64,000 bases of DNA from Pachysolen tannophilus NRRL Y-2460 (GCA_001661245.1 KV454016.1:289868-353867), one strand, 5' to 3'; counted from the first letter of the stretch, positions 5,313 to 54,828 are shown. Numbers and translations are program-made. The notes: generated by a model not told the origin, from the sequence alone.

Positions 5313-6887
5313 ATGAGAATTTTGCGATCACACGGGAAGAAGACTGATTTACCATTGTAAGTTTTAAAATATATTATTACATATATATATTTTATTAAGT
5401 TTAATCAACTAACAAAAAAATAAATTTTTTTTTTTTTTTTTTTGCTTTAAATTAGTTCGCAACCTTTATATCCAAAGAAGAAGAGTGGTTTGAGTAGTTA
5501 TATCAGATATAAGAATGAATTATATAAAATTTTAGGAGTGATTGTTGTAATATTTTTCATTTATTCAATATTTAAAAAATCAAATTCTGAAATAGATGCG
5601 CGTTCTAGTGCACAAGAATTGGATGATTTATTGGAACTGAAATTACATAGTATTCTGGATGATCATAGACATTATACAGTGACAAAAGATGGAGTAATAG
5701 ATAATAATGAAGATTCTTCAAATAAAGAATTAGAAGAAAATTCTTTAGGGTATGATGTTGAATTTTATGATCTTAATTATTATCAAGCAGATGATTCAAA
5801 TGGTGAAGCAAAAGATGATGTCATACTTTTATGTATACCATTAAGAGATGCAGAACCTATATTACCATTAATGTTTAGAAATTTGATGAATTTAACATAT
5901 TCTCATAGTTTAATAGATTTAGCTTTCTTAGTTAGTGATTGTTCAGATGGTGATCAAACTTTACAAACATTATTTGAATATAGTGTACTTTTACAAAATG
6001 GTACATTATTAGATTTTTTAGATAAAGAAGAAGAATTGAAAAAATTAGAAAAAAGACAAGGTTCAAAAGATTTATATTTAAAATATATGGAAGAAGCATA
6101 TGTAAATAGATTAAAAAATGCTTTTCAACCACCTTATCATCAAAATTATACAAAACCTTTTAGAAGTGTTGAAATTTATAATAAAGATTTTGGACAAGTT
6201 ATTGGACAAGGTTTTAGTGATAGACATGATGTTAAAGTCCAAGGAATTAGAAGAAAACTTATGGGTAGATCAAGAAATTGGTTAGTATCTGCCGCGTTAA
6301 AACCTTATCATTCATGGGTTTATTGGAGAGATGCAGATATTGAAACTTCACCTGGAGAAATTATTCAAGATTTAATGAAACATGTTGATTTTGATGTTAT
6401 AGTACCAAACGTTTGGAGACCATTACCAACTTTTTTAGGAAATGAACAACCTTATGATTTAAATTCATGGATTGAAAGTGAAGCTGCTTTACAATTAGCA
6501 TCCACGTTAGGTGAAGATGATGTCATAGTGGAAGGTTATGCAGAATATCCTACTTGGAGAGCTCATTTGGCCTATATAAGAGAACCTGAAGGAAATATAA
6601 ATGAATGTATAGATTTAGATGGTGTTGGTGGAGTTTCAATATTGGCAAAACTGAAAGTATTCAGAAGTGGAGTTAATTTTCCTGCATTTACTTTTATGAA
6701 TCATGCAGAAACTGAAGGATTTGGTAAAATGGCTAGAAAAATGGGATTCAGAGTAGGTGGTTTACCACATTATACAATATGGCATGTTTATGAACCATCA
6801 GATGATGATTTGAAAAGTATTGGGAAATTGGAAAGAAAGAATAGGAGATTACTACGTAGAACAAAGAAGAAAACTATTAGTGAGTAA
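5313..6887 (+). CDS. VAN1: Golgi mannan polymerase I subunit (Anp1/Van1/Mnn9 family, GT62); exons 5313-5356 and 5456-6887
   Basis: WVYWRDADIE, WRPLPTFLG..QPYDLNSW and LPHYTIWHVYEPS match Van1. N-terminal transmembrane segment. Intron 5357-5455 (GTAAGT, AACTAAC, TAG) joins in frame and supplies the ATG. Confidence 0.88.
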
Positions 6888-7367
6888 TTAAAATAGCTAT
6901 TTATCTTGTTATCATATTCATAATTACAATTAAAGTTGTGAGAAATTGTACATTTATAATTTGCAATAATGTTAGAAATACAAAAGAAAGCATAAAAGAA
7001 TCAGAAAAAAAAACTAAAAAAATTAATAAATAAATAATTAAGAGTAATGAAAAAAAAGAAAAAACAATGAAAAAAAAACAACAGCAGAAATATGGTTTTT
7101 ATTTATAGACTTAGTGGTTCCATTTTTATTAAAACATTTTTGTTAAAATCTATAAAAGTTCATTTCAGAACTAATATTTCATTTTTTTCTTTTGTTGTGG
7201 ACCATGTTATGTATAATGTAAAATATAGTACTTTTAAGTGGTGAAAATGAAAAATGTTTTATCTTAAGTTTAATCAATGAAACGGAAATTAAAGAATGGA
7301 AATTAAAGAAGTAAAAAAGTAAAGAAGTAAAGAAGTAAAAAAAAAATATTATAACAAACCTCATCTA

Positions 7368-8939
7368 TTATAAAACCAGGATTCCCATAATGAATCCAAA
7401 TAATCCTAATAATGAAGTTGGACACAGGCCTAAGCCACCAATGTTTGAAGAATGAGAAGATGAAGATGAAGACAGAGAAGCTGAAGCTGAATTGTAGACA
7501 GTTGAAAATGATGATGAATAATATCCAGAATTATTGGAACCATTATTGAAAGCAGTAACACTTTGTCCCGATGAAGAGACAGAACTTGTAGCAACTGAAT
7601 ATGTAGATGTACTGACAGTTCCAGAACTCACACTAATATCATTGTCATTTCTAAGGGCAAATCCAACAGTTTGGTTTGTTATACTGAAAATAGAGTAAAC
7701 GGTTTTCAAAAAAACTCCTCCTAAAATCCAAGAATCATCACCTCCTAAATCTATTCCTTGGATATTACTAATACAGTAACCGTAGTATATAGAAGTATCA
7801 GGGTAAGCATCTCCAAGATAACTATCTGGGTGTAAAGAAAAGTTATATCCACCAATCTCAAATTCTATAACTTCTGTAGAATTACAATAAATTGCATAAT
7901 TTTCACCATCACCAACAGAATTATCAAAATAAGAATGAACTTTTAAAGCATCTTTTGAGTTTAATACTAACGCAGTAGTACCTGAATCAACAATAGCAAA
8001 ACGAGAATCGTTTCTCTCTTGACCATTTATTGTTTGTGAATCAGTGAAAACAATTTGTGTTTCGTCAATATAGACACCAGATATTTCAATTTTCCAATAA
8101 GCATCTGAATTTGAAATAACATCAGTAGAATATATATCTCCATAATATAATTCATCTAAAATTGAACCTATAGTCAAGATACCAGTAAATGAATCCTGCT
8201 CTGCAGTAGTACCATTATTTAAAAAAATTGTAAACATATCCGACGAAATCAGATTTTCATTATATAAAGTCCCTATCAAATCCATTGGTTTATTTGAAGA
8301 AGAGTTTGAAGATAACCCCAAGATACCGCTAATATCATATTCACTCAAGGACAGTGGAACCTCAGTAGCCATTCCAATTTCAAAATCCACCAATTCAAAC
8401 CCTCCAATAGTTACATTTTCCAGTGTGATGTCTCCTTCAGCGGTTCCTGAAGAATACGCCAAAGTAAATGAACTAGTAGCTGAAGAAGTGGTTGTAGAAG
8501 ACGCAGTAGAAGTTGCAGAAGAAGAGCTATCATTATCATCACATGAGGAACAATCACTAGCATAAACCCATAAATAAGGTGAAGCAGTATCTAAAAGAAC
8601 CGTATAGTTACTATTATTGATTGTCACGTTCAAAAAATAAGCTTCGTAGTCGTCATTACTGGTTAAAAGTATGATTCCATCAGTTAATTCCAACGTTGAA
8701 GAACTTGACGAAGATGATGATGATGATGATGACGATGACGATGACGAAGAAACTTCATCATCTTTAGTAACTAGACTTCCCTTGTATAACGACGAAGATG
8801 TCACAACTTTCGATTCTGTTTCGATATCAGAAACTTTATAACAGCTATCGGATGATTCTATATAAGTGGGCGGAGAAACAAGAAATGCAAGACATGATGA
8901 TACTATTACGTTCAATAGTATGAAAATTTTTATAACCAT
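7368..8939 (-). CDS. Secreted, probably GPI-anchored pepsin-family (yapsin-like) aspartyl protease
   Basis: Signal peptide, LLDTAS and IVDSGT catalytic motifs, WILGGVFLK..YSIF, Ser/Thr-rich stalk and hydrophobic C-terminus. Confidence 0.88.
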   Translation of the reverse strand: MVIKIFILLNVIVSSCLAFLVSPPTYIESSDSCYKVSDIETESKVVTSSSLYKGSLVTKDDEVSSSSSSSSSSSSSSSSSSTLELTDGIILLTSNDDYEAYFLNVTINNSNYTVLLDTASPYLWVYASDCSSCDDNDSSSSATSTASSTTTSSATSSFTLAYSSGTAEGDITLENVTIGGFELVDFEIGMATEVPLSLSEYDISGILGLSSNSSSNKPMDLIGTLYNENLISSDMFTIFLNNGTTAEQDSFTGILTIGSILDELYYGDIYSTDVISNSDAYWKIEISGVYIDETQIVFTDSQTINGQERNDSRFAIVDSGTTALVLNSKDALKVHSYFDNSVGDGENYAIYCNSTEVIEFEIGGYNFSLHPDSYLGDAYPDTSIYYGYCISNIQGIDLGGDDSWILGGVFLKTVYSIFSITNQTVGFALRNDNDISVSSGTVSTSTYSVATSSVSSSGQSVTAFNNGSNNSGYYSSSFSTVYNSASASLSSSSSSHSSNIGGLGLCPTSLLGLFGFIMGILVL

Positions 8940-9429
8940 GCTACTTTGATTTCTCTTCTTCTTTTATTCTAACCTGTTTTGTTCTGGCTTGAAGATCTTC
9001 TTTAGTAAACTTCAATTATCAACTCTGCCAAATTACAATACAAACACTATTATGCAATAAAATGAAAAATTCAAGAATTCAAGAAATGAAGAAATGAAAA
9101 ATGAAAAAAAAAAATAGTTAGAAAAAAAGGTAAAAAAAAAAAAATAAAAAAAAAAAAAATGCAAATTGAATATAACGAGTGATTCAACTTTTGATATTGC
9201 TACTGGTCTTCAGTTTATATTAGCAATCCTACCGTTTTTACTTCTTATGTTGAATTAATTTTTTAAAAATATTTCAAATATATATAAATATACATATATA
9301 TATATATATATAATACCTGTAAATAAATAATACCCCAAATATCACGCATGTATTCTTCCATTGACTTTTTCCCTTTTTGGTTTAGGGAATCTCGGGCAAA
9401 TAGAGAATTTCCTTTTATGGAAATGAAAA

Positions 9430-9522
9430 ACGCGCGTCAGGTCAGAACGGGTGCAGAACGATTGCAGAATGGGTACTAAACATTCTTACATGATGAATAG
9501 TATTATTTTGATGACGCGCGTC
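9430..9522. promoter_or_regulatory. Two ACGCGCGT (MCB/CGCG-type) sites upstream of the aspartyl protease
   Basis: ACGCGCGTC at 9430 and the perfect palindrome GACGCGCGTC at 9513-9522. Confidence 0.4.
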
Positions 9523-9817
9523 GATCTTAAACAAATGGGTCAATTAGTGAACCAAAACAAAATTTTTTGGTTTTACCAAGTAATTTTGTATAGTTACTGG
9601 GCGTGTTTTGGGGAAGCCGGAGATGACGAAATATGATCTGGTTGTTTTGATCTTTGATTTTGCGTCCTCTAATGTGAATTCAAGTTGTTATGTGAAAAGA
9701 ATATTAAAAAAGTAAACAAAACTTGCGGTTAATTCCGAATGTTTTTATTTTTTTTTTTAATTTTAATCTTTTTCATTTTTTTGAAAGAGGAGGAAGAGGA
9801 GGGGGAGGAGGTTTCTT

Positions 9818-12364: not shown

Positions 12365-12435
12365 TATCTATTTCTGCTCATGTAACAATTTCACTGATGC
12401 TACCTCAAACAAAAGATATGAATATTCAATCTATC

Positions 12436-12472
<37 letters not shown>

Positions 12473-12952
12473 CAGTATTATTTATCATTATATTTTATTA
12501 TTTAGCAATTCGATAGAAAGACATCACTTCAAGGTTGAGTCGTTCGGACACGACCGTTTTTAAGGTCACCATTTTTCCAACCATCATCATCAACGGTAAG
12601 AAGTGATAAATAACAGAGCTATTGGGTGCCATTGATAGTAGCAAAAAGTATAGAAAGATAGAGGAGATGAATATGTATTGTCTACAGTTAATTATTTTAT
12701 CCGTAGTAGTTTTGTAAAAAATGATACAAGCTTGAGAAGTAAAAATAAAAAAATACTTGAAAGAAAAGAAACGTAGTTTGAGCTTGTTGCAAGAAAAATA
12801 ACAATAGATAATAAAAAAACACACTTAAAAAAAGAAATAAAAGACCCTTCCATTAGTTCTTATTAGAGTTTATGGATAACCTAAAAAAAAAAAAATTAAC
12901 AAAAAAAAACAGAAAAAAAAAAGGAAAATTAAAAAAACCAATCAAGTCTAAG

Positions 12953-14293: not shown

Positions 14294-14780
14294 GTCTTAA
14301 TAATATATTATCAATCAATATCTTTTAATTCAAATCTTCACTTTCAAACTACAAAACCAAAAAACAAAAAAGAAAAAAAACAAAAGAACGACCAACAATC
14401 CTCTTATGCTGATGGCGCCTACCCCGTCTTCTAATGATATCCAATCTATCTTCTAGTTAAAAAGAATTTATTGATAACAAATTGTTTTGTTTATTCAAAT
14501 CGGAAAATAAAATTCTTGTTCTGAAATTTCATCAAAAAAATTTTCTCAGAAAGAACGTTCTTTTAGGCGAGTTGAAATACTACCGAAGTTGATGATGATG
14601 AAGATGAAATTAAACATTAATAAGCACAAAGCAGTTAATACAAGATGATTCTCAAGAAATTAGTGGAAGAAAGAGAAATAGGAAGAGTAGAAACAATAAT
14701 CCAATGCCAATTAAATCCCAATTCTTTTATAGGGGAAAGGCCACCAAAAAAGAAAAAGAACATAAACACAAGAAACGCAC

Positions 14781-14811
<31 letters not shown>

Positions 14812-14872
14812 AAATAACTTTATAACCTTACTAGAACTAGGTAACTAACTAATCTCTGGTGGTTGTCTTTCT

Positions 14873-16156
14873 TTAGATATCTCCACTTAATAAAACTTCA
14901 ACTGCACCTTGAACCGAACCACCGCTTCTTCTTAAAGCTCTAACGTTTCTATCGAAATCGCTGAACCCCATATCATTCAACTGACGCAACTGTGTTTCGT
15001 ATCTTTCTTCTGGGGGTCTGTTATCTGTTTCAACAGGAGCTGAGCCTGCCGCGCCAGCTCCACTTCCTAAGAGCATACCCATCAACTCCGGATTTAAAAA
15101 AGGGTTAGCATCTGCTGAACCAGAACCAGCACCAGAACCAGCACCTCCAGCACCAAAGTTTCCACCGGCAAGCAAACTGGCAAACGGGTTAGCTTGCGCA
15201 GAAGGCGTACCGTTAGGGAACAATGCTGCAAATGGGTTGGCTGCTGCTGCTGCCGATGATGCTGATGCTGATGATGCTTGCCCCAGAAGCGGAGAGTTGG
15301 TGTTGTTGGCCGAACCTTCTCTACTCTCGTTGGAATTTGAGTCGGTATTCGCATTAGCACCTGTTGGACCTGGAGCAGGGAATGGTGTGGTAGATCCTCC
15401 GCTTCCTCCAAGACCTCCTCCTAACCCGCCTAGGGTACGATTCATTTGCATCATTTGTCTCATCATTTGAGGGTTTGTCAACATTTGTCTCATGTAATCA
15501 CTTTGTAACATCTCTCTGGCCATTGGACCCATCGACCTCAACTGCGGAGACTGCTGTATCAAAAAATCCAACATCTGAGGATCAGATAGCATCTGTTGCA
15601 TTGCAGCTTGCATTCCTGGACTTTCCAACATTTCAGATAATTGATTTTCATCTGGTAATGAATCCATACCACCATCCGCACCAAACATCGACAGTGAAGG
15701 CATCGGAACATTATAACCAGCATACCTAGCACCTGTTAACCCAGCTAAGGGATTAAAAGCACCAGTACCCGCAGCAATATTTGAAGGAGCAGATGTAGAT
15801 GAATCTGTATTGCCTGATGATTGCAGTCCAGCTGTTCTCGATCCTGTATTAGTACCCGATAAAGATGAACTTGTCCCAGCACCAGAGCCAGCACCAGAAC
15901 CAGAACCAGTACCAGCACTCTTAACAAGATGAATCGTATGCCCAGACTGGATCTTATAACTAGCTACCGTATCTGCATCTTTCAAAACTCTACCTGAATA
16001 TATTAATCTCTGTCTATCAGTTGGAACATCTGCTTCATGTGAAATTTTTTCCTTAAGCTCTGCAATGGTAAGAGACGGCAACACCGTTAACGAATACTTC
16101 TTATCACCAGATGACTTGATTGTAATCGTGATCTCTTCATTCGTTTGATCGGCCAT
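14873..16156 (-). CDS. DSK2: Ubiquilin-like UBL-STI1-UBA proteasome shuttle
   Basis: N-terminal UBL (QRLIYSGRVLKD), Met/Gln-rich STI1 region, C-terminal UBA (PPEERYETQLRQLNDMGF...GGSVQGAV). Confidence 0.96.
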   Translation of the reverse strand: MADQTNEEITITIKSSGDKKYSLTVLPSLTIAELKEKISHEADVPTDRQRLIYSGRVLKDADTVASYKIQSGHTIHLVKSAGTGSGSGAGSGAGTSSSLSGTNTGSRTAGLQSSGNTDSSTSAPSNIAAGTGAFNPLAGLTGARYAGYNVPMPSLSMFGADGGMDSLPDENQLSEMLESPGMQAAMQQMLSDPQMLDFLIQQSPQLRSMGPMAREMLQSDYMRQMLTNPQMMRQMMQMNRTLGGLGGGLGGSGGSTTPFPAPGPTGANANTDSNSNESREGSANNTNSPLLGQASSASASSAAAAANPFAALFPNGTPSAQANPFASLLAGGNFGAGGAGSGAGSGSADANPFLNPELMGMLLGSGAGAAGSAPVETDNRPPEERYETQLRQLNDMGFSDFDRNVRALRRSGGSVQGAVEVLLSGDI

Positions 16157-16603: not shown

Positions 16604-19030
16604 TTAAAGATCACTAGCATTACCTATGATTTCCATTGCTTGGGAATCACCTCTTTTTAATCTAGGATCATCCAAAGCTTCTGAAAGTAGTTCCCAAGGG
16701 TTTTTAGAACCACCCCATTTTAATACATTATTTTTAAATTTTTCACCATTTTCTCTTGATAATGGGTCTTTTTCAAAAAGATGTTGCCAAATTTTTGATG
16801 CGATTGCTCTATCGAATAAATATGAATAATAGAAGGATCCATAAGAAAATAAATGACCAAATTTTCCTGGCCAATTTGATTCTAAATCAGCAAAAACTTT
16901 TAATTTTTTTTCTAATTGATGATATATATCAACACTATTAAAATTTTTATCAAATACAATATTTGAATGTAAGATTTGATCTAATAATGCCATTTTAATT
17001 TGTCCAAAAATTTCATAATTTTTTAAAAAATTACTATCTTGTTGATAACTTTCTAATAATTTTAAAGGTAATTTTTCATTTGTTTCATGATGTCTTGCAA
17101 AACTAGTTAATACTCTTGGATCTCTTGCAAAATGTTCCATTAAGATTGATGGTAATTCAACAAAATCAGTAGCACAACGGGTTCCACTGACATTATGTAA
17201 ATTTGTTCTACCCAACATTGAATGCATTGCATGACCCATTTCATGGAAAAGTGTTTCAACTTGATATAACGATAATAATGTTTTTCTTGTTGATTGATCT
17301 GGTGCAAAACAACAAACTAATGAAATAACTGGTAATTGAACTAATTCTCCCATACTTGTCTTATTTGTATGAATTGTTTTCAATTTTAAATTATAAACAT
17401 CATTTTTATTTAATTCTTCAGGATATATTTTTCTTGAACAACAAACGGTGAAATGTGCAGGATTTGAAGTCTTATTTGGTCTATAAAATAAATCAAGATA
17501 TATTATACCAATAAGACCTTCATTTTCAGATACAACATTAAATTTTCTAACATCAGGACTCCAACATTCACCTTCTTCAGTCTTTGCAGGAACTAATGAA
17601 ATTCCATAAATTGATTTAAATAAATTGGATAATCCTTGTACTACAGTTCCAACAGAGAAAAATGAAGAAATATCCAGAGTATTTGTTGATTTTTTTTTCA
17701 TCATATGTAATGTAGTTAAATAATCTCTATCCCAAGGTTTTACTGATGAAATAATTTCTTCATCTGATGCACTTGGATTTGAATTTTTTTGATATTTATA
17801 TAAAATTTTAATTTCTTTCAAGACATCATCATGAATTTGTTTTAATAATTTTTGTAAAAAAGACATTACATTATCAGGAGTCTTTGCCATTTTTTCTTCT
17901 AATTGATAATGTGAATAACTTGGTTGTTTTAATAAATGTGCCAATACTCCTCTATATTTAATAAAAGATTCTAATAATTGAATTTGTTCATCTGGTGTTT
18001 GATGTAAAGTTAACCATATTTTTTTCCTTACTTCTTCATTTTTTGAAGTTCTTAATATATCAAATGGTATTCTACCATAAGTTGAAATTTTATAATAACC
18101 TTTTGAATTTTTTTTCAATAAATCTTTAAAAGAAGGATCAAGATCTGATAATTGTTCTTCTTTAACCAAAATATGATCTTTACCACTATTACTTACACCA
18201 TTAATGAAATGTTGCCCCACTAATGATATATGTTGACTTAATTCTACAAAATTTGCCTTTGTTTGTTCATCCATATTAATTCCTGATTTTAAAAAATCGG
18301 TTAATAATAAATTACCAACAGAAAGTTCTTCTTGTGATAATTTTTTATAAATTTCTGGAGTTTTCAATACATGATCTAATTTTTCATAAAGTGAAGAACA
18401 AGTATTTAAAACATTCATATATTGATATAATTCTTCATGACATTCTTGAGCAGCATTTACAAAACTTTTGTTTGGATGAACAAATCTAACAAATTCCAGT
18501 AAATCTATAGCTCTACATAAAATATCACTCAATCTATCCAAATTTCTAATAAAACTTTGATAACCTTCAGGAGAATTATCATTGATAATATGATCAACCA
18601 ATAATTTGGCTTTTTCCAATGATTCAAATGCATATTCTTTTAAACCTTTTGGAGTTTTCAAATATGGATTTTGAAACAAACCAGATGAATTTGCAGATGC
18701 ATTAAAATTGAAAAATGAAGCAGATTTAGTTGAAGATTCATTAAATTTATGCCAAAAAGTTTCATCATCAAAAACTTTCCTAAGAACTTGATCTTGATTA
18801 TCCAACAGATTCTTTAATAACAGCAGTCTAGAATCTTCACCATTATTCTCAGACTTAATAGGCGGTGGAGCATTCGAACTCAGCGGCTTGATATCCAAAT
18901 GACTACTCAAAGACTTTGGCCCCGTCAAAACATACCTTCTCGGTATATATATTATATTCGATTTATAATGATGATTCAAAGTAGAAGCAGAAACCCATTT
19001 CCTAAAAATATGCGATTTTTTCAAAAACAT
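16604..19030 (-). CDS. OCT1: Mitochondrial intermediate peptidase (M3 family)
   Basis: TLFHEMGHAMH (HExxH), GTRCATDFVELPS, FGHLFSYG; basic presequence-like N-terminus. Confidence 0.95.
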   Translation of the reverse strand: MFLKKSHIFRKWVSASTLNHHYKSNIIYIPRRYVLTGPKSLSSHLDIKPLSSNAPPPIKSENNGEDSRLLLLKNLLDNQDQVLRKVFDDETFWHKFNESSTKSASFFNFNASANSSGLFQNPYLKTPKGLKEYAFESLEKAKLLVDHIINDNSPEGYQSFIRNLDRLSDILCRAIDLLEFVRFVHPNKSFVNAAQECHEELYQYMNVLNTCSSLYEKLDHVLKTPEIYKKLSQEELSVGNLLLTDFLKSGINMDEQTKANFVELSQHISLVGQHFINGVSNSGKDHILVKEEQLSDLDPSFKDLLKKNSKGYYKISTYGRIPFDILRTSKNEEVRKKIWLTLHQTPDEQIQLLESFIKYRGVLAHLLKQPSYSHYQLEEKMAKTPDNVMSFLQKLLKQIHDDVLKEIKILYKYQKNSNPSASDEEIISSVKPWDRDYLTTLHMMKKKSTNTLDISSFFSVGTVVQGLSNLFKSIYGISLVPAKTEEGECWSPDVRKFNVVSENEGLIGIIYLDLFYRPNKTSNPAHFTVCCSRKIYPEELNKNDVYNLKLKTIHTNKTSMGELVQLPVISLVCCFAPDQSTRKTLLSLYQVETLFHEMGHAMHSMLGRTNLHNVSGTRCATDFVELPSILMEHFARDPRVLTSFARHHETNEKLPLKLLESYQQDSNFLKNYEIFGQIKMALLDQILHSNIVFDKNFNSVDIYHQLEKKLKVFADLESNWPGKFGHLFSYGSFYYSYLFDRAIASKIWQHLFEKDPLSRENGEKFKNNVLKWGGSKNPWELLSEALDDPRLKRGDSQAMEIIGNASDL

Positions 19031-19775: not shown

Positions 19776-19785
19776 GCCACAGTCT
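19776..19785 (-). promoter_or_regulatory. Met31/Met32-like site (AGACTGTGGC) upstream of JLP1
   Basis: GCCACAGTCT on the + strand, about 200 bp upstream of the ATG of a sulfur-scavenging gene. Confidence 0.5.
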
Positions 19786-19979: not shown

Positions 19980-21218
19980 ATGTCGCAAACAACTTATGAG
20001 ACTCAAAATTCTGTTCAAGAAGAACAATTGAAAGAGATTATTCGTAATACAGGTACTTTGAACGTTCGTGTAGGTACTAAAGAAAAATTGGTTAATGGTC
20101 CAGATCCTGCTGGTTTAAAAATTTTACCAGAAGCTGCTCGTAAAAGATTTGAAGAATCTGGTGTGGACGTTTCAAAAGGTTATCCAGAAAGACCAGATAA
20201 ATCAAAAGTTCCAGTTTATGTCGATGAAGCTTTTGCTGTAAGAAATGAAGATTTCCCTTATATTGAAAGAGGCAAATATGCTGATCCAGAGAAAAAACTG
20301 CTTTTTGCTGCTGCTAAAGAAGTTAAAGATTTAACAAAACATATCGGAACAGAAATTGTTGGTTTACAATTGGCTGAATTAAATGAAAAACAAAAAGATG
20401 AATTGGCTTTATTAGTTGCTCAAAGAGTGGTTGTATTTTTCAGAGATCAAAAACTTTCTCCACAAAAACAATTGGAATTGGGTGGTTATTGGGGACAAGT
20501 TGAAAAACATCCTCAAGCTCTCAGAGTTCCAGGTTTACCAGGTGTTTCTGTCATATGGAATGACTATAGAAGAAATGTTGGTCTACCTTTAACTTTTAAA
20601 AGAAGTAGTATTGGTAATACATCTTGGCATACAGATTTAGTTCATGAACACCAACCTGCAGGTATCACCCATTTACATAATGATACAATTCCTAAAGTTG
20701 GTGGTGATACCTGTTGGGTATCAGGTTATGGTGCTTACGATAAGTTATCTCCAGCTTTCCAAAAATTCTTGGATGGGAAAGAAGCTGTATATTGTTCTGC
20801 ACACGGTTATTTAGATAGAAATGATCCTTTTAGTGGACCTAAAAAAGTTGAAAGAATACACCCTTTAGTAAGAACTCATCCAGCAACTGGTTGGAAATCC
20901 TTATTTGTCAATAGATCAATGACAAAAAGAATTGTTGGATTAGAACCTGCAGAATCAGATTTGATATTAAATTATTTATTCGAAGTTTATGAAAAAAATT
21001 TGGATATTCAAGTTAGATTTAAATGGGAACCAAGCAATAAAGAAGGTTACGGAACTTCTGCAATTTGGGATAATAGAATTTCTCAACACAGAGCAGTCTG
21101 GGATCATGAAGGTAAAGAACCTAGACATGGTACTAGAGTTACTTCTTTAGCTGAAAAACCGTATTTTGATCCAAATTCAAAATCTCAACGTGAAAGTCTA
21201 GGTTTATCATTGGACTAA
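19980..21218 (+). CDS. JLP1: Alpha-ketoglutarate-dependent sulfonate dioxygenase (TauD family)
   Basis: WHTD (HxD), GGDT, HPLVRTHPATGWKSLFVN and WDNR..QH motifs. Confidence 0.9.
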   Translation: MSQTTYETQNSVQEEQLKEIIRNTGTLNVRVGTKEKLVNGPDPAGLKILPEAARKRFEESGVDVSKGYPERPDKSKVPVYVDEAFAVRNEDFPYIERGKYADPEKKLLFAAAKEVKDLTKHIGTEIVGLQLAELNEKQKDELALLVAQRVVVFFRDQKLSPQKQLELGGYWGQVEKHPQALRVPGLPGVSVIWNDYRRNVGLPLTFKRSSIGNTSWHTDLVHEHQPAGITHLHNDTIPKVGGDTCWVSGYGAYDKLSPAFQKFLDGKEAVYCSAHGYLDRNDPFSGPKKVERIHPLVRTHPATGWKSLFVNRSMTKRIVGLEPAESDLILNYLFEVYEKNLDIQVRFKWEPSNKEGYGTSAIWDNRISQHRAVWDHEGKEPRHGTRVTSLAEKPYFDPNSKSQRESLGLSLD

Positions 21219-31202: not shown

Positions 31203-33377
31203 TCAGTTTAAAAATCGTAAATTGTAATAATATACCCATAATCTTCCATAATAATCATACTTATCCACCAAGTTTTCATCAATCTCCACAACACTCCCTC
31301 TTGGAACTGATTGATCTAAACCACCTCCTAAAACGTCATATGCACACCACAAATATCCTTCACATTGTCTAGTCATTGTCCAGCCTCTTGAAGGCTCAAA
31401 ATGATCCAGTTTATTTTGAACGTTATATTCCCCAGGTACTGGTTTCAAATAATTTTTAATTTTGATCAGGTTTCGATATTCATATTTTAAATCATTTTCA
31501 GTAGGTTTTATAGTACTATTATGCAGAATTTCTAAATTATATTGGAAATCATTTTGATAAGAATTGATTTTTTTACATTTTAAAAATCCTGAATTCATCC
31601 ATGCTAAAGTCTTACCATCACTATCTAATATATGTCCAGGGTGAGTAGAACATAATTCTCTAGCAACCATTTTAGAATCGTCAAATGCTTGTAAAGGAGT
31701 TAATTCACCAACAGCAACAGCAAAATTATTATTAAATTTATAATTATAATTTCCAGCATATAATTGACCCATCCAAATTAAATCTTTCTCACCATGAAGT
31801 CTTACTTTTATTAATTTGAAAAAATTCAATTGAATTGAAATTAAAATACCACTAAGATATTGTTTTTTATTCATCAATAATAATCCACTTTCCATTTGAT
31901 GTTTTGAAAATTTTTGGAAAAATCGATTGTTAGTAATTACTTTATCAGAATAAGGAAATTCAGATTCAAAAAAACTTGAATCTGCTTCATCAATCAATAA
32001 ACTTCTAAAGTAATTAACATAACCTTCTTCAACAAAATCATTTGCTTCTCTATCCTTATAAAAACTTGTATTTGATTTTAAATAATTAGATTCTTGAAAA
32101 AAATTTTCAATTGGAATTAATGGTATTGTATCAGAATCTAACATTATCACTTCTTCAAATGATGAAAATAATAAGGCTAATAATTTCATCGAATAAGTTT
32201 GAAAATGGTTCCTATAACGAGATTTGATCACTTTGGAAATATCTACAAAGATCAATTCTTGTTCACGAAATTGACCTTTAAATTGAACGTTTTCACCTTC
32301 ACCTTCACCTTCACCTTCACAACATGTATTTTCAGCTGTTGCAGCTTTATACAACAACTCCTTATTCAGTTTTGATAAATCGTTATTATAAACAATCTCT
32401 ATTGGTAATTCATTATTCAAAGTTCTTAGCAAGGCAATTAATCCAGCCAATTCTGGGACCAATGCATCATTCACTGTGACAACAATACCTTTCCCATTAA
32501 GATTATGTTGTAAATTTTCAAGAAAACATGGACTTGATTTCTCTGTTTTCTCACGTTTAAATGATTTAAGTTTACCATTTTTAAAAATTGAATATTTTGG
32601 AAAAGAAAATGAAAGCCATGGATATATTAATTTTTCTGCATTAGAACATAATTTAGCTTCATTAACTCCATTGAAAAAAAATTTACCAAAAATTGCAGAA
32701 TTGATTAAGATATTGTTAATTTCATTCATGATTTTTCTATTATGAGCCAATTTTTCACGTCTATTATTGATTAAACTTTGTTTAAGATTTTCATAACTAT
32801 AACCGAATTCAAAATTTTTAAGTTTCTCTTTGAAAAAGGATTCTATTTTTGAAAATTTTTGCAATCTAGAGTTTAAAAACTGCTGGAAATCAACTAATAC
32901 ATCTGTAAAGAAGGCATCATCTTCTAAAGTTTGAAATTCAAAGTTAGTTATTGGCAAAATGTCTCTATAGAACTTTTTACATTTTGCATCCAATGATAGC
33001 TCATTAAACTTAGCCTCACCTTTTAAGATTCTATATGGATTTTTAGTTTCTTTTGACTGGAATTTAATTTCTTGATTTGTTAAATCATCAAAAAGTGGTT
33101 TCTTATCCAATGCTTTCTGGATATATTCTAAATCGTCCCTTCCCAATTCATCCAACGCTTTGATTTGTTCTGTATTTAAAGAGTGCTTCTTAATATTGTT
33201 TAATATTTTGGTAGTCTTATCGTTCAAAAGTTCATTTGCAAGCCATAACGATACATTAATTAATACAAAGAGCACCAGAATTGCTATTAAAGACGTCCTG
33301 ATATGTCTTTTAAAAGTAATCCGAGACATATATTCTTTAAAAATTCTATTGTAAGCATTTTTCAGCGCAAAAATCAT
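31203..33377 (-). CDS. Alpha-1,3-mannosyltransferase (MNN1/MNT family, GT71)
   Basis: Type II transmembrane segment, KGIVVT, LRTLNNELPIEIVY, SFEEVIMLDSD, MESGLLL, ELCSTHPGH and YLWCAY. Confidence 0.9.
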   Translation of the reverse strand: MIFALKNAYNRIFKEYMSRITFKRHIRTSLIAILVLFVLINVSLWLANELLNDKTTKILNNIKKHSLNTEQIKALDELGRDDLEYIQKALDKKPLFDDLTNQEIKFQSKETKNPYRILKGEAKFNELSLDAKCKKFYRDILPITNFEFQTLEDDAFFTDVLVDFQQFLNSRLQKFSKIESFFKEKLKNFEFGYSYENLKQSLINNRREKLAHNRKIMNEINNILINSAIFGKFFFNGVNEAKLCSNAEKLIYPWLSFSFPKYSIFKNGKLKSFKREKTEKSSPCFLENLQHNLNGKGIVVTVNDALVPELAGLIALLRTLNNELPIEIVYNNDLSKLNKELLYKAATAENTCCEGEGEGEGENVQFKGQFREQELIFVDISKVIKSRYRNHFQTYSMKLLALLFSSFEEVIMLDSDTIPLIPIENFFQESNYLKSNTSFYKDREANDFVEEGYVNYFRSLLIDEADSSFFESEFPYSDKVITNNRFFQKFSKHQMESGLLLMNKKQYLSGILISIQLNFFKLIKVRLHGEKDLIWMGQLYAGNYNYKFNNNFAVAVGELTPLQAFDDSKMVARELCSTHPGHILDSDGKTLAWMNSGFLKCKKINSYQNDFQYNLEILHNSTIKPTENDLKYEYRNLIKIKNYLKPVPGEYNVQNKLDHFEPSRGWTMTRQCEGYLWCAYDVLGGGLDQSVPRGSVVEIDENLVDKYDYYGRLWVYYYNLRFLN

Positions 33378-39077: not shown

Positions 39078-39109
<32 letters not shown>

Positions 39110-39161
39110 AAAAAAAAAAAAAAATTTTTTCGAGCCAAATTGGGGTTGCAAACCCTAAAAA

Positions 39162-39471
39162 NNNNNNNNNNNNNNNNNNNNNNNNNNNNNNNNNNNNNNN
39201 NNNNNNNNNNNNNNNNNNNNNNNNNNNNNNNNNNNNNNNNNNNNNNNNNNNNNNNNNNNNNNNNNNNNNNNNNNNNNNNNNNNNNNNNNNNNNNNNNNNN
39301 NNNNNNNNNNNNNNNNNNNNNNNNNNNNNNNNNNNNNNNNNNNNNNNNNNNNNNNNNNNNNNNNNNNNNNNNNNNNNNNNNNNNNNNNNNNNNNNNNNNN
39401 NNNNNNNNNNNNNNNNNNNNNNNNNNNNNNNNNNNNNNNNNNNNNNNNNNNNNNNNNNNNNNNNNNNNNNN
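39162..39471. other. Scaffold gap (310 N) with near-identical flanks
   Basis: 39048-39161 is repeated almost exactly at 39472-39584. Confidence 0.95.
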
Positions 39472-39502
39472 CCATCATGAAAATTTTAGACTGTCTAAGA
39501 AA

Positions 39503-39534
<32 letters not shown>

Positions 39535-39574
39535 AAAAAAAAAAAAAATTTTTTCGAGCCAAATTGTGGTTGCA

Positions 39575-39716
39575 AACCCTAAAAACATAACAAGCACAAA
39601 GAGACAAACAAACACACATCCGTACACCCAAAACTACGAGAGAAAGACACCTGGGCTAAAACTGCTGGGGCAGGTTGCTGGGCAGGGCTACGGCCTTTTA
39701 AAGCAGCCGCCTAACC
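39575..39716. promoter_or_regulatory. RPL36 upstream element cluster (Rap1-like, Tbf1-like, IFHL-like)
   Basis: AAACCCTAA at ~39575, ACATCCGTACACC at 39616-39628, GGGCTA/AGGGCTA, two copies of TGCTGGGCAGG, and GCCGCCTA at ~39706. Confidence 0.55.
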
Positions 39717-44035: not shown

Positions 44036-44109
44036 GGTTTCGTGGTCTAGTTGGTTATGGCATCTGCTTAACACGCAGAACGTCCCCAGTTCGATCCTGG
44101 GCGAAATCA
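44036..44109 (+). tRNA. tRNA-Val(AAC)
   Basis: GGTTTCGTGGTCTAGTTGGTTATGGCATCTGCTTAACACGCAGAACGTCCCCAGTTCGATCCTGGGCGAAATCA folds as a cloverleaf with anticodon AAC and is followed by a T-run Pol III terminator. Confidence 0.97.
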
Positions 44110-45880: not shown

Positions 45881-46581
45881 ATTGTTTCTTTTACTTTTCA
45901 CTGCATTTCATACATTTTCATATTTATTACGGGTTAATATTTTTTTGGTTTAGGTCCCATAGTTTTTTTTTTTTTTTTTTTTTGATTTATACATTTCTTC
46001 AATTCAATTCAGATACATCTATATGAGTGAATTTACGACAAATAATTAATTTACAAGAAAAAAAAAAAGAAATTCTTTACTTTTGTAACTTTAAATCATC
46101 ATATTAAAATAAGTAACTAATAGTGGCGGATATCTTCTCCAAGAAGCATTCAAGTCTCCGCAATTGTCATTCCGTAAAAATCTCTCGTAATAATAATATT
46201 TTTCTTTTTCTCTTTTCTTATATATGTGAAAAAAAAAAAGGAAACCCCCGCATAATACATAATATGTTAAACTATAAACCTCTCAAACTACTCGATAACA
46301 ATGTTCTTCAGTCAGTATGAAAACTAGAAAAAAAAAAAAACTTTAAAAATCAGTAAGTACCAACACCACAAGTCATAATAACAACCATGTTAGTAAAAAC
46401 AACAGATAGCAAGGAAAAGAAAAGTCAACAATAATAAAATAAAATAATAAAATAATAAAATAATAAAATAAAAAAATAAAAAAAAATTTATATCTATAAA
46501 ACCTCCCTTTTTCTTTGAAAAAGACAAAAAAAAAAAAAATTAACAAACAAAAATAAAATTAGGAATATTCTGTAATTTTGT

Positions 46582-49500
46582 TCAGGCAATTTCTCCACCT
46601 GTTTTCTTTTTATTAACACCACCAAAGGACATAGGATCCATGAATTCATCAAAAATCAATGAATAAATGTCATTCAAAACATGGCCATTTCCATTAAGAC
46701 CAGCATTGCTACTATGGTTATTAGTATTGTTACTATCATTAAACCCTTTTTTAACCTCTTTACTCTCATTATTATCATAGGATGGCATCAATAAATCTTC
46801 CATATCATCGTTATCATTAGTATCTATAACGTTCTCAGTCTGTTCAACTTTAATGTTAACAATATCATGATTATTTTGTTTTTTCTGAACCGGAGAAACA
46901 ATATCATTCAAGTAATTCAATTCTTGAGTAGATAAAGATTGGCCATTAGGTTTCGAATCAAAACTATTTCCGTTAGCAACAGGGTTGAAATTTGTTGAAA
47001 AATAAGCATCAACATTGACCGGATCTTGTACATCAAGATTATCTCTATTGAGAGTAGAATTTTCAAATTTCATGAAAGATGAACATAATCTGTCTATTAC
47101 TTTTATGAATTTAACAGCTAACTGATTAAATCTAGATAATTTAGCCAATATATTTTTGGATAAATTAATGTCATGCATCCAATTTTCATTGTATTTTGTA
47201 TTTTCAGGTTCTGAACATAAACATACAATCGGAATCAACACTGCTTGAAATAAAAAATATGTACAGTACCAAATAGAAATAATTGAAGATTCATTAGAAG
47301 CGATGTATTCTTCGATTGAACATATAGTTTCATGAGATGCTCTTAAACATATATCACGACATTCCTTACCTTCTTTGGATTTCGATTGAGACAATATCTC
47401 TGGATTTTTAACACCTATAACTCTTTGCCAAATAAATGCTCTAAACAATATAATTTGTAAATTTTTATACCTCCAAATTAATCTATTTCTAGCCAATTCA
47501 AACCATTGAGGAATTTCTTTCTTCTTATTATATAAATCCTTAGGTGTAATTTTAAGGAAATTCAGATGTGCCACTGCTTTATCTTCAGAAAAATAAAGAG
47601 GTAAGTTTGCTATAAAACAATTCAATTCTTGATTTAATTGTAAACATTCCAGAGCTGTTGGAGCTGGTTTTGAAATCAAACGGTTATAAATTGAAGATGC
47701 TAAAATTGTGAATCTTGTTTGATATTTTAAGCCAGAATACACAGTAGGATAAGGTTTTTGTAATGATTCTGATGATATTATATCATTATCACTTAACATA
47801 ATTTCATTTAATTCTTCATCATTAATGTTTGAAACTTCATTAATATCAATCATATCTATAGATGGAAGATTAATTGGTCTACCAAAAGTTATTGCAGCAC
47901 CTGCATCAAAAATATATATCCCCCACCATAATCTTCTTCTAATTTCCAAATTAAGTAAATTAGCCTTAACAGTTCTTGAATCACTTGAATTTAAATTAAA
48001 TTCTTTATGTAATCCTAAAGACATTGCCATTCTTACTGCAAGTCCTAAATAATTCCAACCAGTATTTGGTTTATTTCTCTTTTGAGTATAATTACTCAAT
48101 AACATATAACATTCCAATAACATGACATTACCAATTTCGAAAACATTAATTTTTTTCAAAGTTTTTTTAACTTTCTTGTAATAAAATAAATCTATCTTTG
48201 AATTTTCACCATTTATACACCATGCACCAATTGCTAAGACAGTGTTAACTAACATTGAAAAAGTTTGTTCATCTTTAACTGGGATTTCACGAATATATTG
48301 TTTGATAAATGTATCTCTGTGGATAAAGGGATAAGAAGTATGATAATATTTAAAATACAGAGCAATAAATTGATCTTGAACAAATTTTGAATTCAATTGT
48401 TTTTCAATAGCACCTTTTTTAGATACAAGATTTTTCCTTTCTTTTGAATGCAGATTAAATACTTCTTGAGGATAATCCAGGTCTAACAACATATCGAAAT
48501 CACCAGAGGCGACTCCATCTTCATCATCTTCATTATCTTCGTCGTCTTCATTCTCTTCATCTTCAATCTGACGTTCTTCATCAATTTTACCAATTTTCAA
48601 AGTTCTTAATAATGCAGAACTCGAAGCCAATCCAAAATAACCTGCATTATTTGGAGTACCATCACTATTAAAAGAAAATGCAGCCATTCCATCAACCGTA
48701 TTCATAGATTGCAAACATGGACTTGTCATACCAGAAGACGATGATGAGTTCAGGGCGGTTGTTGTAGCCGCAGTCATCATATCATTTGGTGGAATTGATG
48801 ACAATGAGGTTATTGAATTCCTCTTATCAAAAATTGAAGAAGATGAGTTTGATTCATTTTCTTCTGCAAGTAATAAATAATCATCATCATCATCATCATT
48901 ATCTTCATACCAATCAAACCCATTGACACTATCGTTCACCAAATACTCCTCGGGCATTGTTGGTCTGAATGAAGAACCATTCTGGTGTTGGTTATATTGG
49001 TTTTGTTGGTTGTGTTGCAGCAGCAGCAGCTGGTTATGTTGGTTTTGTTGTGGGAAATGCAATCTTTGCATTGATACTGGTGGCGACGGTAAAGACGCAG
49101 GTACTACTGATGTCCCTGCCTTAGAAATCGACGAATTTCTCGAGTCATAATATGAAGCCGCCGATGAAGGAGGGGAATTCAAAATTGAAGATGCTTCAGA
49201 TTGTCCTGAATTAAGCGCCAAGTTTCCTGCTGCTCCTACTACTCCCGCTCCCCCCGCCGAGGTGGAAGATGATGATGAAGTCGAAGTCGAAGTAGAAATC
49301 GAACCGCCCATGCCCAAACATCTATTATTCCTCTTCAAATCTGTAATAAAAGCATTTCTAACACTACCGCCATTACCAACATTACCAACATTACCGCCAA
49401 TGCTGCCAATGCTGCCAATACCACTATTGCTCGCGCCCTTTGCTAATAAATCATCCAAATTTTCATTTGGAGGCAATAGCCTCGATAACAATGTTTCCAA

Positions 49501-49761
49501 ATCCCTGCATTTATTTTCAACACTTGTTAGATGCGCCCTTGTTAAAGGGGACCTAACCATTCTTGGTGAATATTTACAATCCCAACTGTGTTGTATACAT
49601 TTCGAACATTTTGGATATTCTTTGGAACAACGAAGTTTGCGTTTACGACAAGAATCGCAAGCCTGTTCTATAGGTGGTTGACTTTGTTGATTTAATTGAT
49701 GTTGATGTTGATGTTGATGTTCGCGCTCACTACTAGTGGAGATACCGGCCGACCTATTCAT
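46582..49761 (-). CDS. GAL4: Zn2Cys6 transcription factor, Gal4 ortholog
   Basis: [25 protein letters not shown]...C.YSP...[12 protein letters not shown] (Gal4-specific linker), a fungal TF middle-homology region and an acidic C-terminal DIYSLIFDE. Confidence 0.88.
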
Positions 49762-50597
49762 TACACCGAAATATACCTATATATTCAATAAAATATATAT
49801 GGTATTATATAATTTATTTCCTCCTATTTGGAATTCAATCTCTATCTATGATACCGGATATATACCATATATGACATATATATATATATATATTTAATAT
49901 ATATATAATATATAAAAAAATATATATGTATATTAAATTATATTATATTATAATTTAATGCTCGAATCCTGTAATGTATCTATAGTGGGGTAAAAAATTG
50001 GCAAAAATTTTCTCTTTGTTAAGATTTAATTGAAAATAACAGGTGATGCCTTTGTTCTCTTATATAAATATATAAATATATAGATATATGAATATATATA
50101 TTTATATATATAGCGCTTAGATAGAAATATATATATATATATATATATATCTAGTATATATAGATGATCAATATGCTAGGTAGTATTGTTATCAATGATG
50201 AATACGCTCTTATTAATATATTAAATGGAAAGATGTTGCATTTACAGACGTATTATTAAAAGTCAAAAAAAAAAATAAAAAATTAAAAAAAAATCATCAC
50301 ATATTTATTTATTATAATTATTATAAATATTATTTTTATATAAACAGGCGTGGGATTATTTTTTTTATTTTTAAAGTTTCTAGCTCGCAGCTAGGAGCTT
50401 TTCATTTCGAGACATTTAATTACTTTTGACTTGACTAAAAAAGAAAGAAAAAATAATAATAATAATAATGGTTGTATTTCTAATATTATTATTATTATTA
50501 TTATACTGTTAAGCCATGCTTTTTTTCATGTTCAGTTTTTTTGTTTTTGTTCTTTTAGTTCTAAGAACATTGGAATATAATTTTGAATATGCCGCCC

Positions 50598-50642
50598 ATT
50601 GATCTATAATCATTGATCATAGATCAATGATTATAGATCAAT
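50598..50642. repeat. Perfect 21-bp inverted repeat with a 3-nt spacer
   Basis: ATTGATCTATAATCATTGATC-ata-GATCAATGATTATAGATCAAT. Confidence 0.95.
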
Positions 50643-50797
50643 TCGAGAATAATACCTTGTTACTCTTTTATGTAGGATTAAAACTCTGCTTTAAACTTTG
50701 AAAATGACGTTTTCCTCTTTTTACACAATAAGAAATTAAAGTAAGGAGCAGAGGAGAGTAGAAAAAAAGGAAAATGAGAGGAGAATTAAACTAATTT

Positions 50798-50834
50798 GAC
50801 TAGATTAGACTAGACTAGATCAGACTAGACTGAC
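50798..50834. repeat. (GACTA)n pentamer microsatellite
   Basis: GACTAGATTAGACTAGACTAGATCAGACTAGACTGAC. Confidence 0.7.
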
Positions 50835-52975
50835 AGTTTTTTTTTTAAAAAAAACAAAAATTAGATGAAAATGAGTTGATTTTTTTTTTCTAGCTAAATG
50901 TTTCCCTTTCAATTGATTTAAAAGAGGGAAAAAAAGCGCTGATTAACGAACGGTTATATCTATTACTTACAACATAGATGTGAAAATTCCTATAAAATAA
51001 ACCTAGTTTCAAAAATTCCTAATTTTAAAATCCTAGGTCCTATCTCCTTTGTTTTTAACCTCTACAGTATGCACAGTAAAGAAAGATAAATTTTATTTTT
51101 TATTATTTTTCTCTTTTATCTTTTTGGTTTGAGATTACATTACATGTGCCCTTTTAGTTTTTAGCAATCAATCAAGAACTCATCCGAGATTAGTATACTA
51201 TTATCGGGATTATTTATAAATTATTATTAATAATAATAATAATAATGACAATAATACCGGACCTAGTTATTAAAAATGTCTCCGAACCAGCACCGAAACC
51301 CCTTTATTCCCTATTGTTTTACATTCTTTATTTTATTTATTTATATTAAATACAGATTAAATACATGATTGATATTGGTTAAACTTTCCAATTATTATTA
51401 TTGGATTTAAAGCCGATTGGAAAATTTTATCTAGATATTCAATAATACCTATTTTTGGAATTATGTCCAGTAAAATACATTAAAATAAAAAAAAAATTGA
51501 TAGTTACAATAGAAGCTTCTATGATAATACCTTTGGGGGAAAAGGCAACAAAAAAGTACCAAAAAAAAAACAAAAAAAAATCACTCTTATTATAATTATT
51601 ACATTAGTACATTTAATATATTACATATAGATTTTTTTTTATCTAATTTGACCCCATCTTTTTTTTTTTTTGAAGATTTTTTGAAGATTTTTTGAAGCTT
51701 GTTGAAGATTTTATTCTTGTGTATAAGTAATATAATATTGTAGAAATTGTCAGTTGTAAGGTAAAAATATTTAACATTTTGGTAAAATTGATAAATTACC
51801 TCCCAAGTAAATTACAATTTTTATTAATTATTTGATTCTTAAGTTTAAAGTAAGAGACGAACCAGACAAACGTTTACAAATAATTTTTTTAAACTTGAGT
51901 GGTAAGTTTCCGAAAAGCATTTTTCACGCATAAAACAATGCAGATTATAGACGCTCTTTTCGTAATCACATGTTTCGGAGTAGTTTAACAATTTCCACGG
52001 TGGTTATTTACAACAATTATTTTTAAAACCGAGGTGAATGATTAAATAAATAAATGAATGAATGAATAATCATAGTATAATTCAATTCAGGCACAATTCG
52101 GATTTTGAATAGCGACAAAAAAAAAGGCTAACCAATTACTTAAGCTGCATGGAAACTTTTACATCATTACCTTTCCTTCTTTGCTAGATAATAATAATAA
52201 TAATAATAATAAATCAAAAGTTTTTCAAAAAAAGAATTTAATCACTCAAAAACAGAAACTTTTTTCACCTTATAATACAAAATTAGACCCCAAAACAATA
52301 AAACTGTATTTTTCTCCTTTTATGATCATAAGATTAGCAAAATGTAAATATAATTACTATTTGGGCTAGAATTGGATTCAAAATAAACAAATAAAAAAAA
52401 TAAAAATTAAAAAAAGAACTCCCCTCGTAATCTTACAGTATCAATAGGATGATGTATGTAAACCCATTTTTTTTTTTTAAAAAAAAAGAAACTTGATATA
52501 AGTTGCTGCTTTCATAGATTTAATCTTTGAAACAGTACAAGTAAAGGAAATCTACTTATTTCTCCATTGCTTAATATAATTTAAATTATCTTAATTTATT
52601 TAGATGTCTTAAATTCAAAATAGTTTTTATAAATAGTAATACTTTAAACAAATAATAAATTTGAATTTCATTATATACAAAGAAAAAAATCAAATAATAA
52701 TAAAAATTAAAAATAAAAAAAAAAAAATAAACAACAACAACAACAACTATACAATTGACCATAAAAAAAGTCAGTTTATTCTTTTATTTCAATGATAATT
52801 AATATCTTTATCTCTCTCTCTCTCTCTCCTCAACCCCGAGAAAAAAAAATGGGGAAAAGTTATAATTTAAAGCTTAATTCAAAGGCTCACTTTATGGAAG
52901 AAAATACACAAAATAAAAATAAAAATAAAAATAAAAATAAATTTAAAAAGCATAATTTGGTTCCATTAATTTCAT

Positions 52976-54828
52976 TTAAACAAATTGTGAAAGTTGAGCA
53001 TGTGCCATCAATTCTTCAACTTTTTTACTCAAATTAGGATCTTCTCTGATTTTTAATTGCATCTTTGCAGCTTCAGCAAATGAAGTTGCTTGTAATTTAT
53101 CTTCATAACCTCTTGCCAAATCAGCAGCTTCTTCAAATAATTTGATGGCTTCTTCAACTTTACCTTGTTGTAATTTGACTTGAGCCAAGATACTTCTTGC
53201 TGATTCAGATTTAGGATCAATTTTACAAGCTCTATCCAAAATTTCAATGATTTCATCCATATTAGCTGGATTTTTTACCAATAATGCAGCTTTGTTTACC
53301 AATGGAACAGCTCCAATGCTAAAAGTTGGTAAATTTTTCTGTAATCCAGCAGCAACATCAAATTGTTTTAAAGCTCCTTTTTCATCACCAGAATCTAATA
53401 AGATTTCTCCATAATAATTTGGTATTTCTGGAGAAGTTGGGAATTTTTTTTTCAGATCTTGGAATTTTTGTTTTGCATCTTCAACTTGACCATTTCTATA
53501 AGCAATACAAGCTAATTGAATATAAGCATAAACATTTTCAGGATTTAATTCTTTTGCCTTGATGAAATTTTCCTTTGCTCTTTCTAAATCTTGAGTCAAA
53601 TAATATAATTGTCCAATATGATAATAAATATCTGGATCTTGATCATTTAAACTATGTGCCATATCAAAATATTTGTTAGCAGATTCCAAATCACTTTTAT
53701 CAGCATGAATTAAAGCCAATAAAACATATCCTTTTGGTCTCGCATTTAAACTAATTGCATAATCAATAGATTTTAAAGAACTTTCAATTTCATTTTTAAG
53801 AAATTGCATTGCTCCTAAATATTCAAATGCAATAGCTGCTTTTTTCGCATCTGGAGAATCACTTGTTAAATCGGTTCCATACCTATCACAAGCTTGTTTA
53901 AAAGCTACATCTGCTGCATCATAACCTTCAGGGGTATTCAATTGTAATTTTCTTAAACCTTCAGCTAAAAATTTATCCCCTTCAACATTATCTTCATCAA
54001 GACCTTCAACTGTTGTTTCTGGAATGAAAGCTTCAAAAAAAGCAGTTATAGATCCTGCAGTTGGTAAAGATGGAACTCTATCTGCCAATTTTGCTTGAAC
54101 AACTTTAGCTGATTGTTTTTTCAAATTTGTTTCCAACATGGATTCACTTGTCTTATTATTGAATCCACCATATATGGTTAATGCAGTCAAATCAAACATA
54201 GCATCGGTATATTTTTCAAGATTTTCATAAGCTTGTGCTCTTCTTACTAAACATTTTGAATAATCTGGTTTTAATTTTAAAGCTTTTGTAGTATCAGCAA
54301 TTACATTTTCATTATCATCCAAGGCAACATAACAAGCAGAACGATTAGAATAAAAAACAGGATCTTCATCACATTTTATAGCAAAAGAATAATATGTAAT
54401 TGCATCTTCATATTTCTTGGCTTTAAATGCAACATTACCTTCTTCTTTTAAAGCTAATGCCCAATTTTTTTTTCCTCATTAGATAATCCACGAATAATCT
54501 CATCATCAATCTTAGGTAATCCAGTAGCTTCATCAACGGGATAAATCGGTGGCATATCACTTTTCAGCTCTTGAGATGAAGGAGAAGATGGTGAATTGGT
54601 ACCTGTAGCAGCACCAGACTTCTTCTTCTTCTTCTTCTTCTTCTTTGAAGCAGAAGACGATACATCAGGATTCAACCCTAAAGATTGCGATTGACTATTG
54701 AAGTATAAGTAGGCCCCAATCGCAGTCGAAGTACCAACAGCAGCAGTCAATGCAATTGCAGATCTATGAGTAGAAGCAAACCTGGACGCCCTGTCCCAAA
54801 ACGTTTGCGATTCAGCAACACTGGACAT
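52976..54828 (-). CDS. TOM70: Mitochondrial import receptor Tom70, split by a frameshift at an A9 run (54465-54473)
   Basis: The upstream ORF carries the TM anchor and poly-Lys. After the shift the frame reads WALALKEEGNVAFKAKKYEDAI...DPVFYSNRSACY and runs into the TPR ORF (AMFDLT, YIQLAC, PEIPNYYGEIL). Confidence 0.9.

Follow-up and report, generated by a model that had tools for sequence, protein, structure and literature searches.

The stretch of DNA treated here, called the window throughout, is the whole of the 64,000 nucleotides at KV454016.1:289868-353867 (assembly GCA_001661245.1), and the question is how the codon CTG is read in its protein-coding genes. The window has a G+C content of 29.6% and contains 22 open reading frames (ORFs) of at least 150 amino acids, in which 91 in-frame CTG codons occur among 13,339 codons and to which 19 of the 22 ORFs contribute at least one. 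A preliminary description of the window had proposed that CTG encodes alanine, on the basis of five CTG codons in recognizable protein motifs and a (CTG)4 run within the glutamine-rich tract of a GAL4-like gene. Each of the five codons was located in frame with the expected flanking peptide, and the run was also found to be in frame (Table 1). The gene labels are supported by the Pfam families detected: Anp1 for the Van1-like ORF (6.8e-92), ubiquitin and UBA for the Dsk2-like ORF, peptidase M3 for Oct1, TauD for the Jlp1-like ORF, TPR for Tom70, and Zn2Cys6 (Zn_clus), Gal4_dimer and Fungal_trans together for the Gal4-like ORF. The nuclear code in which CUG means alanine is translation table 26 of NCBI.

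Table 1. CTG codons and CTG-containing features of the window (positions counted from its first nucleotide; x, residue encoded by CTG).
Feature	Position	Strand	Details
Van1-like CTG	6651-6653	+	Codon 261 of ORF 5871..6887; in frame; context SILAK-x-KVFR
DSK2-like CTG	15692-15694	-	Codon 155 of ORF 14873..16156; in frame; context MPS-x-SMFG
OCT1 CTG	18497-18499	-	Codon 178 of ORF 16604..19030; in frame; context IDL-x-EFVR
JLP1/TauD-family CTG	20298-20300	+	Codon 107 of ORF 19980..21218; in frame; context DPEKK-x-LF
TOM70 CTG	53453-53455	-	Codon 249 of ORF 52976..54199; in frame; context FQD-x-KKKFP
GAL4-like (CTG)4, Gln-rich tract	49018-49029	-	Codons 245-248 of ORF 46582..49761; DNA reads CAG CTG CTG CTG CTG CAA
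GT71 mannosyltransferase ORF	31203..33377	-	Six CTG: codons 5, 34, 337, 618, 637, 657
OCT1 (mitochondrial intermediate peptidase) ORF	16604..19030	-	Six CTG: codons 50, 69, 70, 75, 178, 452
CTG-rich segment with 15-base tandem repeat	55916..55948	+	Within ORF 55370..57739, which has no Pfam family

For comparison with homologues, CTG was translated as X, which kept the query from biasing the alignments; the search query for JLP1 was translated with table 26, and the JLP1 alignment that was counted had X at the site. As read from these alignments, homologues at all five sites show alanine or columns in which alanine is the leading residue. Site 261 of the Van1-like protein is aligned to Ala in Saccharomyces cerevisiae Mnn9 (3zf8, "lvkAevhr"), the sole homologue at this site being this Mnn9 paralogue and not a Van1 orthologue, and site 249 of Tom70 is aligned to Ala in Tom70 (2gw1, "seAkrkfp") and to Thr in Tom71 (3fp2 and 3lca). 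The column of OCT1 site 178 is composed of A 54, C 49, S 11, T 2, V 2 and L 1 in 119 orthologues, and the S. cerevisiae residue is Cys. For DSK2 site 155, 119 homologues gave A 81, M 22, L 11, S 2, E 2 and G 1; all of the 22 rows with Met and 10 of the 11 with Leu have a diverged downstream motif, such as MDQLGFGADGM, instead of SMFG-DGG. JLP1 site 107, which is gapped in 58 of 150 representatives, gave A 27, S 18, N 17, E 7, H 6, D 4, R 3, P 3, L 2, T 2 and V 1 in the 92 aligned sequences, and a search of the Protein Data Bank (PDB) with JLP1 returned no alignment over this site, since the TauD-family alignments start at residue 108 or later. The alanines that the preliminary description had given for homologous motifs are thus borne out by Mnn9, Tom70, DSK2 (81/119) and JLP1 (27/92), not by Tom71. 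The Ala of its OCT1 motif, DLAEF, is found in 54 of 119 orthologues; the motif is right for many yeasts and fails for S. cerevisiae.

The residue best fitting CTG was also inferred codon by codon, using a log-odds profile computed from homologues only and summed for each codon over four alignments; 2,029 of 2,371 positions had the required occupancy of at least 50%. As a control, the true amino acid was recovered for 51 of the 51 codons having at least five sites. CTG could be scored on 10 of the 16 sites in the four proteins, the other six being dropped for low occupancy, and the order of scores was Ala (-0.9), Ser (-3.4), Pro and Lys (both -5.4), with Leu at -13.7 in ninth place among 20. 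Random draws of 10 genuine Leu sites gave a mean Leu score of +12.5, and none of 20,000 such draws was as low as the value for CTG (minimum, -6.0). Because no Leu-codon resample scored so low, leucine is excluded on the window's own evidence, and the pattern exceeds what chance would give. The mean Leu frequency was 0.043 in CTG columns and 0.524 in columns of genuine Leu codons; CTG did not behave as the other leucine codons do. At conserved orthologue positions CTG was aligned to alanine and not to leucine, and many of the CTG sites stand in variable columns. The preliminary description had named columns dominated by Leu or Ser as the pattern that would speak against alanine; on inspection Leu is excluded, Ala is the top residue and Ser is second.

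Public protein records point to the same code and to the organism. Record P0001 equals the GT71 ORF, and P0098 the OCT1 ORF, letter for letter when CTG is translated as Ala and not when it is translated as Leu or Ser, so that the two records together have Ala at 12 of 12 CTG codons. P0218 (PACTADRAFT_86383, Pachysolen tannophilus NRRL Y-2460) is identical to the DSK2 ORF over the first 345 of its 363 residues and gives Ala for each of the three CTG codons of DSK2, including site 155. The nearest other named relatives in OCT1 are Kuraishia capsulata, Candida arabinofermentans, Ambrosiozyma monospora and C. boidinii, with 59-64% identity; all four are members of the Leu2 clade. The best OCT1 matches apart from the window's own copy reach about 63-64% identity, and the window is therefore not from another sequenced taxon among these matches. 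The identity with the P. tannophilus record over 345 residues and the next-nearest named taxa place the window in the alanine clade. The preliminary description had assigned the genome to the Pachysolen clade; it is in fact that of the founding species of the CUG-Ala code itself.

Two further observations concern these records. The window's DSK2 ORF is uninterrupted, has 427 amino acids and ends with the UBA domain; the public model P0218, of 363 amino acids, leaves this ORF after residue 345, finishes with a tail of unrelated sequence and lists no UBA domain, and from the comparison of the two sequences the 3' end of the public gene model may be in error. P0101, a match of OCT1, and P0229, a match of DSK2, are relatives from Logan assemblies with 63-64% identity. 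They have the highest counts of Leu at Ala-conserved columns in their respective sets (2 of 17 for P0101 and 3 of 14 for P0229), and the sole Leu at OCT1 site 178 belongs to P0101. This distribution suggests that both may come from another CUG-Ala yeast whose proteins were translated with the standard code.

Taking these results together with the literature, we consider that the window comes from the nuclear genome of Pachysolen tannophilus (NRRL Y-2460 or a near-identical strain) in which CUG is decoded as alanine according to table 26, with a probability of about 0.97. What the present analysis itself provides is that the CTG sites are real, that Leu is excluded, that Ala is the best-fitting residue, that public records use Ala and that the species follows from a named record. 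For its recognition of tRNA, alanyl-tRNA synthetase relies on the acceptor stem, not on the anticodon. The decoding tRNA would carry the anticodon CAG on a body of alanine type, with G3:U70, A73 and no long variable arm, and because the synthetase ignores the anticodon, it would charge this tRNA with Ala.

The identity of the tRNA and the peptide evidence are taken from the literature. The tRNA(CAG) of P. tannophilus groups with alanine tRNAs and has A73, G3:U70 and no extended variable arm, and in liquid chromatography-tandem mass spectrometry Ala was found at 97.2% of the 907 CUG positions that had full support (Muhlhausen et al., 2016; PMC4937558). The same study counts 16,824 CUG positions in the genome, with 80% of genes affected, and describes CUG as lying "mainly at conserved alanine positions" (PMC4937558). 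If CUG is alanine, all of the 91 CTG codons in the 22 ORFs are to be read as Ala, where a standard-code track writes Leu. The alanine code proposed in the preliminary description is accordingly supported by homologue columns, by database copies that fit CTG as Ala only, by the P. tannophilus record and by the literature.

Outside the five sites, many CTG codons stand at variable positions and a few are aligned to hydrophobic residues in distant relatives. The GT71 mannosyltransferase has no Leu-dominated column among its CTG sites: site 337 shows E 32, D 13, A 9 and L 9, site 657 shows E, D and K, and sites 5 and 34 are within a poorly aligned N-terminus. For the aspartyl protease, PDB searches at 1e-30 and 1e-22 gave no matches; at a threshold of 1e-12, four distinct distant homologues were obtained, with T, A, Y and Y at site 173, A, Q, G and G at site 196, and D, L, L and A at site 230. 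The PDB alignment of FCP1 ends at residue 681, short of its CTG site 697.

Several points weigh against reading CTG as alanine, or limit what the window contributes to it. Conserved residues other than Ala are found at GT71 (MNN) sites 618 (K, 28/67) and 637 (P, 74/96) and at OCT1 site 452 (E, 61/96). In some distant homologues hydrophobic residues are aligned to CTG: Ile of S. cerevisiae bL28m at MRPL24 site 165, in a weakly aligned and unconserved stretch that makes the site uninformative; the Leu of cathepsin E and chymosin at the aspartyl-protease site 230; and the Leu of the distant neurolysin at OCT1 site 178, which lies in the first columns, at the edge of the local alignment. In the codon-wise inference, with its 10 CTG sites, the lead of Ala over Ser is only 2.5 log units, and the window alone thus separates the two residues only modestly. 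The Ala score of CTG is below 99.8% of the resamples of ordinary Ala codons, and therefore CTG positions are less conserved than GCN positions. The hydropathy of flanking residues, considered as an identifier of the residue encoded by CTG, was rejected and gives no support to Ala: over the 91 CTG sites the mean is -1.07, the most hydrophilic of all, lower than for Leu (-0.66, p=6e-4), Ala (-0.35, p=3e-8) and Ser (-0.59, p=4e-5) alike. The Ala in the database copies is the depositors' choice of code and not a measurement. Of the 91 CTG sites, some 20 were covered by the comparison with homologues, which is a further weak point of the evidence from the window; the other 70 or so are in low-complexity or unalignable regions or in further proteins, among them the GAL4-like, RRM, TBC, C2/MUN and SPP41-like ORFs and three ORFs having no Pfam family.

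The window also gave no tRNA(CAG) gene in an ARAGORN search, the only tRNA found being a tRNA-Val(AAC) gene at 44036-44109 on the plus strand, which scored 53 bits against the Rfam tRNA family in a targeted scan. A scan of the whole window with Rfam at the gathering threshold returned no matches and missed the known tRNA-Val(AAC) as well, and for this reason its blank result is not evidence of absence.

Among other decodings, serine follows alanine in the codon-wise order. If CUG were serine, it would be read through a tRNA-Ser(CAG), either of the Ser1 (Candida) type or of the Ser2 (Saccharomycopsis/Ascoidea) type, and the occurrence of Ser in several CTG columns (11/119 at OCT1 site 178 and 18/92 at JLP1 site 107), together with one CTG inside a Ser-rich tail (SASASxSSSSSS), would agree with it. 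CTG did not, however, fall at conserved serine positions: Ala exceeds Ser at the conserved cited sites by 54 to 11 in OCT1, 81 to 2 in DSK2 and 27 to 18 in JLP1, the summed score of Ser is below that of Ala, and alanine is the residue in both Mnn9 and Tom70. With CTG translated as S, the window ORFs differ from their database copies, and the nearest relatives are Pichiaceae and not yeasts of the Ser clades. In addition, the organism is P. tannophilus, for which the published study reports an Ala-type tRNA(CAG) and Ala-containing peptides at CTG sites (PMC4937558), and we regard serine decoding as very improbable. Even less credence can be given to standard leucine, with the Ala matches at the five sites being coincidences that had been picked out. 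The L, I or V residues of a few distant homologues at CTG-aligned sites would fit it, as would the 15-base repeat at 55916-55945, in which one copy has CTG where the other has the Leu codon TTG. Against it stand the low frequency of Leu in the CTG columns and its score below all 20,000 resamples, and the database copies are mismatched with CTG as L.

Ambiguous decoding of CUG, in which Ala would predominate and some other residue would form a minority large enough to matter biologically, is also very improbable, if slightly less remote than a serine code; Ascoidea asiatica (Ser/Leu) and Candida albicans, with 3-5% Leu, are examples of such ambiguity. Positions as unconserved and hydrophilic as the CTG sites would tolerate ambiguity, and among the 907 CUG positions 8 had ambiguous and 18 had non-Ala peptide matches (PMC4937558). 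The study reports, however, that such exceptions are similar in number at the unambiguous control codon AUG; it concludes that CUG is no more ambiguous than AUG and that the long variable arm required for Leu or Ser charging is missing from the tRNA(CAG) (PMC4937558).

A Gln codon adjoins CTG more often than it adjoins Leu, Ala or Ser codons, in 16 of 91 cases compared with 113/1138 for Leu, 52/657 for Ala (GCN) and 68/1305 for Ser. Several CTG codons interrupt runs of Gln, such as QQQxQQxQQxQ in the SPP41-like ORF and NQxxxxQH in the GAL4-like ORF. The 15-base tandem repeat listed in Table 1 reads CTG GAA CCT TTG GTA, then CTG GAA CCT CTG GTA, and then CTG; its two copies differ by one T/C change (TTG and CTG), which is silent in the standard code and is a Leu/Ala difference here, giving AEPLV and AEPAV. 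It is conceivable, as a tentative proposal that we hold to be doubtful, that CUG-Ala codons, with their hydrophilic flanks, Gln neighbours and less conserved columns, are used differently from GCN-Ala codons, most of them being young and kept only where Ala is harmless. Young CTG codons could arise by a single-base change, either of a CAG within a Gln tract or, following the example of the repeat, of a TTG, and their restriction to harmless positions could follow, for example, if one low-copy tRNA decodes them. The positional bias rests on one window, and it may already be covered by published analyses of codon positions.

One of the 22 ORFs, of 154 amino acids at 39155..39619, is an artefact, since it reads through a run of 310 N at 39162-39471.

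Compared with the code described for P. tannophilus, the window has the same codon with the same new meaning in the same organism, its CTG codons occur at alanine positions of conserved proteins as that study describes, and no difference was found. Nakazawaea and Peterozyma have the same code in different genera, being placed in one Ala clade with Pachysolen (Krassowski et al., 2018; PMC5951914). In that source the Ala clade branches off from the Leu2 clade inside the Pichiaceae, which fits the nearest named relatives of the window (PMC5951914). The CUG-Ser codes, namely table 12 of Candida albicans (Ser1) and the Ser2 code of Saccharomycopsis and Ascoidea, concern the same codon reassigned in budding yeasts. 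A shared route has been proposed for them, in which tRNA-Leu(CAG) is lost and the codon is taken over by a tRNA with a synthetase blind to the anticodon; in the published model for P. tannophilus the capturing tRNA is a tRNA-Ala with a mutated anticodon (PMC4937558). The difference is that the new meaning is Ser in those yeasts, whereas the CTG columns of the window favour Ala over Ser. For some CUG-Ser yeasts, published studies also describe Leu/Ser ambiguity or stochastic decoding.

The CUG-Ala code is already known, together with the decoding tRNA and the proof by proteomics, from the 2016 publication on P. tannophilus, of which the window is one example, and the preliminary description was right in presenting the code as known and not new, as it has been published for P. 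tannophilus NRRL Y-2460 itself (PMC4937558). Because all three have been published for the same species, nothing new is added here for biology. The practical consequence is that ORF and protein tracks of the P. tannophilus genome need translation table 26; if it is not used, 91 residues in 19 of the 22 ORFs of the window are wrongly given as Leu. A second 2016 report on the CUG-Ala code of Pachysolen tannophilus is cited as reference 12 in PMC5951914. For work with genomes of this kind, the window illustrates that the reassignment of a sense codon is recognisable from raw sequence by means of a handful of conserved motifs.

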